A stretch of 33,931 nt of DNA from a virus (taxonomy: Duplodnaviria > Caudoviricetes), in IMG/VR virus record IMGVR_UViG_3300016476_000798, positions 1-33,931 of that record; one strand, written 5' to 3'. The notes below the pieces were generated by a model. It was not told where the DNA came from. It saw only the letters and a program-made list of their open reading frames with translations, and did not search any database. Below, piece by piece: positions 44 through 10,272 of this stretch. Position 1 is the first letter of the stretch. Every line of letters begins with the position of its first letter. Position numbers and translations under genes: made by a program.

Positions 44-121
44 TGGTCGGGGTGGCAGGATTCGAACCTGCGACCTCCTGCTCCCAAAGCAGGCCGTCTA
101 ACCGGACTGACGTACACCCCG
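44..121 (-). tRNA. tRNA-Pro(UGG)
   Basis: Cloverleaf: CGGGGTG/CACCCCG acceptor, CCTGC-TTTGGGA-GCAGG anticodon arm, TTCGAAT T-loop, encoded CCA. Confidence 0.97.
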
Positions 122-778: not shown

Positions 779-873
779 TGGTACTCCCAGCAGGATTCGA
801 ACCTGCGGCCTTGCGCTAATCTGGCGCTAATACCGTGTATAAGACGGCTGCTCTACCGCTGAGCTATGGGAGT
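779..873 (-). tRNA. tRNA-Ile(UAU) with a long variable arm
   Basis: ACTCCCA/TGGGAGT acceptor, GCCGT-CTTATAC-ACGGT anticodon arm, about 25-nt variable region with GCGC-CAGATTA-GCGC hairpin, T-arm, ACCA end. Confidence 0.88.
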
Positions 874-874
874 A

Positions 875-950
875 TGGTATCAGCAGGTGGGTTCGAACCA
901 CCGACCTACACCTTATCAGGGTGTTGCTCTACCTACTGAGCTATGCTGAT
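875..950 (-). tRNA. tRNA-Ile(GAU)
   Basis: ATCAGCA/TGCTGAT acceptor, ACACC-CTGATAA-GGTGT, encoded CCA. Confidence 0.97.
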
Positions 951-1110: not shown

Positions 1111-1188
1111 TGGAGGGACGGGCCAGATTTGAACTGGCGGCTTTAAGGTTTTGCAGACCTTTGCGTTGGGCCACTCCGCCACCGTCCC
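1111..1188 (-). tRNA. tRNA-Cys(GCA)
   Basis: GGGACGG/CCGTCCC acceptor, AAGGT-CTGCAAA-ACCTT, U discriminator, CCA. Confidence 0.96.
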
Positions 1189-1305: not shown

Positions 1306-1381
1306 TGGTGCCGGGTAAAGGAGTCGAACCCTCGACCTTCTCATTACAAGTGAGCTGCTCTACCAACTGAGCTAACCCGGC
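1306..1381 (-). tRNA. tRNA-Thr(UGU), copy 1
   Basis: GCCGGGT/ACCCGGC acceptor, CTCA-CTTGTAA-TGAG, CCA. Confidence 0.96.
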
Positions 1382-1394
1382 GTATCTCTTATAG

Positions 1395-1551
1395 CCACAC
1401 TCTTTCGAATGTGGGTATTAAAACACACTATACAAATGTGCTTTAATACTCTAGGTTTTTACCACCGGTGTTGTCGCCACCAGCTTCTCATCCCCTAGGC
1501 CGCCCACGTTAGTAGCAACTTGTTTAAAGTGTCTTGCAGGACCGCGTTCCC
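1395..1551 (-). ncRNA. Candidate structured ncRNA C at the head of the tRNA array
   Basis: CTAGG/CCTAG enclosing CTGGTG/CACCGG, then GTATTAAAGCACA/TGTGTTTTAATAC and CCACATTC-GAAA-GAGTGTGG hairpins; starts just after a sigma70 promoter. Confidence 0.55.
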
Positions 1552-1567
1552 TATTAACACTTGACTA

Positions 1568-1596
1568 ACTATACGCTAACTTTAACTATGTGTCAA
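1568..1596 (-). promoter_or_regulatory. sigma70-like promoter proximal to the tRNA array
   Basis: TTGACA-N17-TATAGT. Confidence 0.8.
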
Positions 1597-1620: not shown

Positions 1621-1656
1621 AATAAAAAACCCCCGGTTGCTTCTGCTTCCGGGGGT
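1621..1656 (-). terminator. Intrinsic terminator (attenuator) upstream of the tRNA array
   Basis: ACCCCCGG-12 nt loop-CCGGGGGT followed by a U-rich tract (TTTTTATTTT). Confidence 0.88.
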
Positions 1657-1704
1657 CTCAATTAACGTAAATTTATGCGTATAGCTAGATTACGTTAAGC
1701 CCCC
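1651..1704 (-). promoter_or_regulatory. Putative antiterminator helix
   Basis: GGGGG-C-TTAACGTAA (1690-1704) is complementary to TTACGTTAA-TTGAGA-CCCCC (1651-1670), sequestering the 5' arm of the terminator. Confidence 0.7.
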
Positions 1705-1801
1705 TCATATCGATTGTAAATGCACAACCGTAATGGGTCACCTGCCAATTACTTGGCATGCGGTTCTCTGGTTTTGCTATCGATACTGTTTGCTTTATCA
1801 T
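1685..1801 (-). CDS. Putative 38-aa leader peptide MIKQTVSIAKPENRMPSNWQVTHYGCAFTIDMRGLNVI (not in ORF track)
   Basis: Hand-translated open frame ATG..TAG; ATG is 6 nt after a perfect -10 box; contains all 20 amino acids; ends in the antiterminator strand. Confidence 0.7.
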   Translation of the reverse strand: MIKQTVSIAKPENRMPSNWQVTHYGCAFTIDMRGLNVI

Positions 1802-1807
1802 AACCTT

Positions 1808-1835
1808 ATTATACACAACTATAGATTGTTGTCAA
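1808..1835 (-). promoter_or_regulatory. sigma70-like promoter for the leader peptide
   Basis: TTGACA-N16-TATAAT; a late-type GATAAATA also lies at 1852-1859. Confidence 0.82.
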
Positions 1836-9249: not shown

Positions 9250-10272
9250 TTAGTTAGCCTGTTGGGCATGATCATAGAGTGCGCGGCTTGCAAGATTCTT
9301 AGCCTTGCTCTCGCACATGATGTCAAACTCATCACGGAAGGTTAATGCCCAATCATTGACCGCACGGTTCCAGTAGTAGTCACTGTGTGCGCGAAGTTTT
9401 GCTTTCTTGTAGCCCTGCGCTAGCAGTGTGTCAAGATCGGGTCGAGTGTCCCCACAGTGCTGCGGTAACAGTTCTTCACGGGAAACTGAGTAATGAATAA
9501 CAGGGCGAACGCCCCGCCAACTATCAATAACCCTTTTAACACGGTCGTCATTAGCTTCAATGTATTCTCCATTTCTAATCCATTGGTGATGGATGTCTAG
9601 CACCAGCGCACAATCCTTAGCTAGTGCTAGGCTCGAATTGAGACCCCAGGACATTTCGTCGTTTTCGATTGTGAGGGTGTTTCTTGCTTCGGTGCTGAGT
9701 CTTGGGATAACTCGCTTGATACCTTCGGGGCCTTGGCGACCCGCGATGTGGACGTTAATTTTAAAGTCCTGAAAAGACCTTCCGTAGCCCATCCAACGTG
9801 CCATGTCTGCATGATATTCAAACTCCTCTATACTTCGGTTAACGATTTCTGGATTGACACTGGCGAGGACGCAAAATTGTCCGGGGTGGAAACTAAGTCG
9901 GACCCCTGTCCTACGAGCAAGCTCACCAATAGCTGCAAAGCGAGGTACCATAGCATCAATGACGTCCATACGATGCCAAAAATAAGACCAACTAGGCTCA
10001 GTATAAACGGGAAGGATATCACTGCCAAGACGCACCATGCGAAGATCTTCAGGTAACGTGGAAACATATTCAACTAATCTCCTTGCCGATTCAGTGTTGT
10101 GTAGCATAATTTCCCACAGGCGTTCTTCGGCGACTTCCCGTGTTTGTCTATTTAACCATGCTACAGTGGTTGCTTTGGTGTTTAGCGGCCGCTGCAATTC
10201 TTCTAGAATTCGCTTAGGTTGTGTCTGATCCGGGTGCATGTACTTACATGCAAAACCAATGCGTTTAATCAC
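9250..10272 (-). CDS. uvsE: UV DNA damage endonuclease (UvsE/UvdE)
   Basis: RIGFAC, RLSFHPGQF.VL.S, EFEYH, TIENDE, LDIHH, HYS, RAHSD, MCESKAK. Confidence 0.95.
   Translation of the reverse strand: MIKRIGFACKYMHPDQTQPKRILEELQRPLNTKATTVAWLNRQTREVAEERLWEIMLHNTESARRLVEYVSTLPEDLRMVRLGSDILPVYTEPSWSYFWHRMDVIDAMVPRFAAIGELARRTGVRLSFHPGQFCVLASVNPEIVNRSIEEFEYHADMARWMGYGRSFQDFKINVHIAGRQGPEGIKRVIPRLSTEARNTLTIENDEMSWGLNSSLALAKDCALVLDIHHQWIRNGEYIEANDDRVKRVIDSWRGVRPVIHYSVSREELLPQHCGDTRPDLDTLLAQGYKKAKLRAHSDYYWNRAVNDWALTFRDEFDIMCESKAKNLASRALYDHAQQAN

Follow-up and report, generated by a model that had tools for sequence, protein, structure and literature searches.

A candidate ribosome-mediated attenuator with an all-amino-acid leader peptide upstream of a phage tRNA array

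Described systems and layout of the locus

Attenuation by leader peptides has been described for genes of biosynthesis, for synthetase genes and for stress genes, and the leaders of the amino-acid operons (trpL, hisL, pheL, thrL and ilvL) are the textbook cases; in trp and his, termination at an untranslated leader is brought about by a protector helix. The pheST attenuator (with its PheM leader) and the T-box riboswitches extend tRNA-charging control through antitermination to translation-machinery genes. It has long been asked why tRNA genes occur in phages; codon bias, replacement of degraded host tRNA and escape from tRNA-cleaving defences are discussed.

In M. smegmatis, the uORF of whiB7 (wblC) contains 19 of the 20 residues and senses single-codon starvation, one Trp codon being sufficient (PMC10274678, accessible parts). 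The trn operon of Anabaena is a long tRNA array which, according to the accessible parts of two papers, is stress-induced through the DNA-binding repressor TrcR (PMC8421152, PMC10272220); the strings 'attenuat' and 'leader' do not occur in the available portion of PMC8421152. No attenuator of tRNA genes or of phage genes was found in the literature searched, with subscription papers mostly beyond its reach.

The present locus lies on the minus strand of a 33.9-kb contig from an uncultured large aquatic phage (IMG/VR record IMGVR_UViG_3300016476_000798), which was analyzed over its whole length of 33,931 nt and is called the window below. The contig also carries genes for QueD, a DNA ligase, endolysins and a radical SAM protein, and near-identical DNA is contained in freshwater and estuary sequencing runs. 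Read along the minus strand, to which all window coordinates below refer, the order is promoter P1, a start codon at 1801, the leader ORF, a terminator, promoter P2, a structured RNA, five tRNA genes and the contig end. P1 (1808..1835) is a promoter of the sigma70 type, TTGACA-16-TATAAT, preceded by an A-rich tract; it matches the consensus at 12/12 positions, and the ATG follows six bases beyond its -10 box, both as originally predicted. Since this places the A of the ATG at the usual start-site distance, the sequence suggests that the P1 mRNA is leaderless, a mode of initiation reviewed in PMC9031893 (accessible parts). A longer start giving 41–43 codons was rejected, as it precedes the predicted start site and falls in the -10 region. 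The leader ORF (1801..1685) has 38 codons, 29 of them distinct, and encodes the peptide MIKQTVSIAKPENRMPSNWQVTHYGCAFTIDMRGLNVI, in which a count confirmed every one of the 20 amino acids.

Behind the ORF stand the intrinsic terminator (1621..1657) and P2, a second sigma70-type promoter (1568..1596; 11/12 consensus). The first tRNA gene is separated from P2 by a conserved structured RNA (1385..1562), which shows a z-score of -5.5, is supported by the alignment, and has no Rfam match at threshold. It folds into several hairpins, one of which differs in length by approximately 39 nt among relatives, and a sequence partly like it stands after tRNA-Trp in the L094/L110 group. According to tRNA prediction, the array starts with tRNA-Thr(UGU) at 1306..1381 and continues with tRNA-Cys(GCA) at 1111..1188, tRNA-Ile(GAU) at 875..950, tRNA-Ile(UAU) at 779..873 and tRNA-Pro(UGG) at 44..121, the last before the contig end, which cuts the array. 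The tRNA-Ile(UAU) is 95 nt long, its anticodon arm being followed by approximately 18 additional bases (either inserted sequence or a long variable arm), and has the same length in relatives; an ATA codon is kept by the leader in 11/11 elements of the family described below. A 219-aa ORF (98–757), whose N-terminus is P-loop-like and which lacks a PHROG match, is inserted in the array; relative G003 has it in a similar place, and it is absent there in relative G001. Upstream of P1, a 105-aa ORF (1882–2199) has no database relatives except itself; a diverged counterpart occupies the same place in locus L084, and other sequence stands there in L098. Positions 2736–2798 are the leader of a queD-like gene.

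In comparison with the trpL/hisL type, the locus shares a short, presumably translated leader, an antiterminator and a terminator that exclude each other, and, within the coding region, a likely pause hairpin. Those leaders, however, repeat codons for one to three amino acids in runs and control biosynthetic genes, whereas each residue occurs at most 4 times among the window's 38 codons, which have no run for one or a few amino acids. What was found here is a frame-selected ORF between a promoter and genes, a terminator, an exclusive antiterminator overlapping the ORF and a relation of codons to cargo; the codon run, the protector helix and a match to a catalogued family, which mark the trp/his type, are absent. 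The leader ORF and its RNA had no match in Pfam, NCBIfam, PHROG or Rfam, whose catalogues cover leader peptide and leader RNA families, and the T-box and other catalogued RNA families were rejected on the lack of an Rfam match. From these features, the element likely works like a leader-peptide attenuator, yet outside the trp/his type, as a variant of a known mechanism. It also differs from pheST and the T-boxes, each of which senses one tRNA and controls synthetases, the T-boxes by binding the tRNA directly.

The original view that there is no described equivalent was too strong, since the whiB7 uORF is a precedent: it likewise combines a uORF and an antiterminator with broad amino-acid content and single-codon sensing, and start-codon loss, reported to give read-through there, is predicted to do so here (PMC10274678, accessible parts). 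As far as that text goes, the whiB7 uORF controls a bacterial transcription factor, varies in length, is Ala-enriched, is unconnected with tRNA genes or phages and, unlike the window's leader, is not selected for full coverage in approximately 30 codons; the window has tRNA genes downstream and 2 Ala in 38 codons. The Anabaena array resembles the present one in its length and in being induced by translational stress (the latter proposed for the window) but has, in the accessible parts of the papers cited above, a DNA-binding repressor as its control.

Leader composition and its conservation in the close family

The chance level that the original prediction had asked about was calculated in several ways. 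All 20 residues are present in 42/8354 of the 38-codon windows taken from the genes of the window (0.5%), in 49/13064 stop-free six-frame windows and in 946/200000 random ORFs; among 61 short ATG ORFs in the window, the leader is the only one that has them. The number of distinct codons, 29 by count as predicted, lost its weight as evidence and was dropped, as at least 29 are reached by 29% of random ORFs. Given 61 short ORFs, the all-20 composition alone could have been a product of chance. That the leader is nothing but a chance ORF in an intergenic region has, nevertheless, a negligible probability, because the homologues refute it through coding selection, composition and recurrence.

Relatives were collected by DNA pattern searches from viral contigs and from 14 of 16 metagenome hits, the metagenome pattern describing the terminator only, so that the ORF was not selected for. 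The resulting 19 loci represent 11 distinct elements, with three loci left out (one truncated, two unrelated). The ORF stands at the same place in 11/11 elements and has 36 codons in the relatives; in the window, one extra base near the end moves the stop by two codons. This allele is no assembly error, since contigs from two other studies match it letter for letter. Over the 11 distinct elements, the pooled pN/pS is 0.30 and 19 of 32 variable columns fall on third positions, while the other two frames have stops in 11/11 and 8/11 elements and ratios above 1.

The composition is kept as well. All 20 residues are present in 9/11 elements and the other two lack only Asp (Asp31); 10/10 distinct peptides have 18 residues inside codons 2–29 (column shuffle p 1.5e-4, a test inflated by relatedness). 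The rare singletons Trp, Cys, Tyr, His and Phe are all retained across the family, and His is found in every element, at position 5, 13, 20, 23 or 24 (p 0.014, likewise inflated by relatedness). A residue that is kept but moves points to selection on composition and not on fold, and the sequences support a translated leader selected for amino-acid coverage rather than for its peptide sequence. The conserved short ORF that had been anticipated in related phages was thus found with both frame and composition preserved, and the leader element is real, conserved and under selection.

Other routes to relatives were less productive: of the neighboring proteins, the 105-aa ORF gave nothing new and 80 QueD loci contained no homologous element, and BLAST against cultured phages returned no homologue of the window's element. 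Two contigs from RNA libraries, X14 and X20, cover the element, one of them extending 65 nt upstream of the P1 -10 box; they were rejected as expression evidence because contigs do not show ends or strand.

RNA structures and the predicted switch

The terminator, predicted from a GC-rich stem (1655–1630) followed by a U-tract (1629–1621), is conserved in 12/12 aligned sequences; a simple terminator scan missed it on account of its interrupted stem. The last codons of the ORF do pair with its 5' arm and flank over 9 bp + 5 bp, as had been noticed at the outset: in this antiterminator (1651..1704), the GGGGG at 1704–1700 pairs with the CCCCC at 1655–1651 in the terminator 5' arm, and 1699–1690 pairs with 1670–1657. 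Competition with the terminator is limited to the 5-bp G-C helix, whereas the 9-bp stem is compatible with it. Across the family, whose 11 elements all have the ORF, 99.1% of 220 antiterminator cells are paired, with none of 500 shuffles as high and slid controls at 30–55%, so that the ORF and the alternative pairing are both present in the homologous loci. The proposed search for covarying pairs gave compensatory changes on both sides of four antiterminator pairs; these lie in the upper stems, which do not preclude termination, and the five competing pairs of G-run and C-run are invariant and therefore show no covariation.

The ORF itself folds as an 80-nt hairpin (1707..1786; arms 1786–1779 and 1714–1707) with 97.1% of cells paired and two pairs changed on both sides. 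Its inner hairpin (1758–1743) has a GNRA loop in 11/11 elements, and synonymous sites in codons 7 and 30 covary. At 12–14 nt past the hairpin base, 11/11 elements have a predicted pause-like sequence, in the window at 1693..1704, with G at -10, a pyrimidine at -1 (position 1694) and G at +1; the hairpin-to-pause spacing in the window is -14. The base identities of the consensus by which this pause was called are our working assumption. In attenuation, hairpin-stabilized pauses couple the polymerase to ribosomes, and positions -10, -1 and +1 are enriched (PMC11077087, accessible parts). The hairpin with its pause-like sequence is a predicted candidate for a synchronizing pause.

Folding of the nascent RNA was in line with a switch. 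The G-run lies beyond the end of the ORF hairpin and is protected by no helix, and the antiterminator forms without a ribosome; the C-run was sequestered (P 0.88–1.0) unless a ribosome covered the G-run, which began at codon 31 or 32, depending on the assumed footprint edge. With a ribosome at the stop, sequestration in the window fell to 0.00–0.13, consistent with the original idea that such a ribosome masks the antiterminator. With the boundary at +11, however, it stayed at 0.5–0.6 in 4/11 elements (0.13 in the window), and the predicted switching is therefore not clean in all models. In the full RNA at equilibrium, the terminator wins (P 0.99 without ribosome), being 6–11 kcal/mol more stable than the antiterminator, so that read-through must be kinetic, through trapping.

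The predicted sensing zone is limited to codons 2 to approximately 30–31, from which alone a stalled ribosome can free the antiterminator, and hence comprises 18–19 of the 20 residues. The original claim that a stall at almost any earlier codon suffices stands for these codons in folding; it fails for Leu35, which lies outside the zone, and Asp31, the residue lost in 2/11 relatives, is borderline. Leu is conserved although it could not be sensed, and part of the 'all 20' is accordingly structure. The anticodon nuclease PARIS cleaves tRNAs with the anticodons UUU (Lys), UGU (Thr) and GUU (Asn), and phage tRNAs rescue from it (PMC12409363, accessible parts); codons cognate to these targets are in the sensing zone, as is nearly every other amino acid.

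Based on these sequence features, it is probable that the element is a ribosome-mediated transcription attenuator that gauges decoding speed over codons 2–30/31 and boosts transcription of the phage tRNA genes. P1 would make a leaderless RNA starting at the AUG, and the polymerase would pause near nt 108 behind the ORF hairpin until a loading ribosome melts the base of this hairpin. In the race that follows, approximately 28 codons would be left to the ribosome and approximately 72 nt to the polymerase. With plentiful charged tRNAs, the ribosome would occupy the G-run from codon 31–32 to the stop, leaving the C-run free for the terminator to form, and transcription would end at approximately 1625. 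A delay of the ribosome anywhere in codons 2–30/31, or its failure to load, would let the G-run and C-run pair first and the polymerase proceed into the tRNA genes, so that slow decoding would add P1 read-through to what P2 delivers. A toy race model (28 codons against 72 nt, with assumed rates), which speaks for plausibility only, predicted basal read-through of 0.02–0.55 and 0.38–0.90 with one codon 20-fold slower.

In the same model, a general twofold slowdown gave 0.67–1.0 read-through, at least that of the single slow codon under the assumed rates. Moreover, since the G-run has no protecting helix, failed initiation or a lack of translation should also give read-through, the opposite of trp and his, in which an untranslated leader terminates. 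Both points would suit a translation-coupled switch that reads overall ribosome availability or speed (leaderless initiation, antibiotics, Mg2+, host shut-off), the codon diversity merely providing an 'average' frame. Such a frame would need neither the retention of all five rare singletons nor the relocation of His, and we consider this explanation unlikely compared with a gauge of individual codons.

The size of the effect is bounded by the other promoters. The caution voiced at the beginning, that P2 downstream of the terminator would make the leader a booster rather than the only switch, holds: P2 is present in 20/20 family loci (P1 in 19/20, the exception being the truncated locus). Since P2 is conserved, the leader device in this lineage can only boost the first tRNA block. 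The arrays of relatives G001 and G003 contain 6–7 further consensus promoters, and these together with P2 may supply most of the tRNA. The attenuator might even be an inherited one that is now largely redundant in this lineage, with P2 and the internal promoters driving the array; but selection still acts on the ORF, on both helices and on the terminator in 11/11 elements, which makes this very improbable and favors a functional attenuator.

Recurrence in other phage lineages and the tRNA cargo

A search pattern consisting of a G-run before a five-C terminator, and nothing else, matched 64 viral loci. An ORF of 15–60 codons ending just after the G-run was found at 26/27 loci with tRNAs behind the terminator vs. 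1/37 without. After de-duplication, the proportions were 12/13 for tRNA-linked and 1/32 for other loci, relatedness inflating the Fisher test. The expected divergent short ORFs upstream of tRNA arrays are therefore present: the 12 de-duplicated leaders come from approximately seven lineages and their peptides are mostly unrelated; 8/12 contain 19–20 residues, from four lineages. The terminator of locus L099 and of the L094 group has a tRNA behind it within approximately 45 nt of its start. One match without tRNAs was a known ilv operon leader, which indicates that the pattern of G-run plus terminator finds real attenuators. A short ORF with at least 19 residues was found at 0/123 terminators without tRNAs (five dropped for short flanks and three duplicates). 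A terminator scan free of the G-run covered 5/64 parts of the collection and serves as background, not as an unbiased test of G-run enrichment; the one tRNA-linked terminator in it had no leader element. At locus L298 (complete genome G010), ARAGORN calls a tRNA with the amber anticodon CUA near position 130.

The unrelated sequences of same-position peptides in other lineages also bear on whether the function lies in the peptide or in the terminated RNA of 180 nt (as a small protein or a dual-function RNA), with a terminator that merely ends the RNA. Purifying selection on the peptide, the conserved hairpin in the coding region, and P2, which serves the tRNAs independently, would fit such a product. 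A C-terminus that tolerates a frameshift would not, and neither would a peptide profile search in which 1 of 10 hits was a true relative or an invariant G-run for which a plain terminator has no need, so that a functional product is quite improbable, and the attenuator remains the preferred reading.

The leader codons also relate to the tRNAs behind them. The array of G001 has 28 tRNAs for 20 amino acids and that of G003 25 for 19; 23 of the 24 G001 anticodons read codons of the window's leader (p 1e-4), 21 of them within codons 2–30. Leaders with 12–17 residues precede smaller tRNA sets, whose amino acids they cover at 4/4, 5/5, 6/6 and 9/10, a match that is weak and post hoc with single p-values of 0.02–0.16. 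The tracking of their own cargo by short leaders is nothing that an 'average' frame would need. Overall, the sequences support a match between leader codons and the anticodons of the tRNAs behind them.

Among six cultured-phage tRNA regions scanned, one, that of CcrBL10, had the full layout; it was not found in DC31, XacN1 (array partly covered), Vibrio 1.081.O, T5-like TrudiGerster or 7t3 by a detector that needs an ATG and a strong terminator. The CcrBL10 unit matches 49 records, including phiCbK, and was present in 5/5 regions examined. It is unannotated in these Caulobacter and Brevundimonas phages and lies at 9402–9552 of L301 (CcrBL10) and 4005–4160 of L305 (phiCbK), where the leader ORF begins at 51341 of NC_019405.1, ahead of tRNAs for Phe, Val, Ile and Gln; the accessible text of the phiCbK-group genome paper PMC3556154 contains no mention of 'attenuat' or 'leader'. 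Like the window, these units have a promoter, a likely leaderless ORF (31–32 codons), an antiterminator and a terminator before tRNA genes, and their codons are enriched for the cargo (p 1e-4 to 9e-3). Unlike it, they are unrelated in sequence, are matched to a tRNA sub-cluster instead of all 20 amino acids, and have the antiterminator mid-ORF by whole-leader folding, its score varying with the folding window (5/5 vs. 0/6). A mid-ORF antiterminator would not be blocked by a ribosome at the stop, so that a pure timing model would be needed there.

The same genomes hold further candidates. A second candidate leader stands before a terminator and tRNAs for Pro, Thr, Lys, Leu, His and Ala (L301 7407–7737 in MH588544.1; L305 2204–2433 in phiCbK), where the annotated gp078 (L301 7500–7637) is a 45-aa peptide composed almost entirely of Ser, Ala, Leu, Thr, Lys, Pro and His. 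The third candidate is a 20-aa ORF at L301 6801–6863, ahead of tRNA-Glu and tRNA-Asp. At L301 8796–9075 and 9620–9780, tRNA-like genes, by eye apparently for Ser, Tyr and Phe, were missed by both the record annotation and ARAGORN.

A wider interpretation, to which we give somewhat less than an even chance, is that large phages carry an evolved tRNA gauge. This would be a minimal test message, its codons matched to the phage's own tRNA set, that registers when nearly any host tRNA is lost, anticodon-nuclease cleavage included, and answers with transcription of replacements. Such counter-defence feedback would act without a protein regulator and would have been rebuilt with unrelated peptides in many lineages. 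If this is true, phages treat their tRNA genes as an inducible response to tRNA shortage, and the codons of each leader are a readable list of what that phage monitors. With the analogue in the cultured phage phiCbK, the idea can be tested directly, and an element of approximately 200 nt might serve as a general reporter of tRNA depletion.
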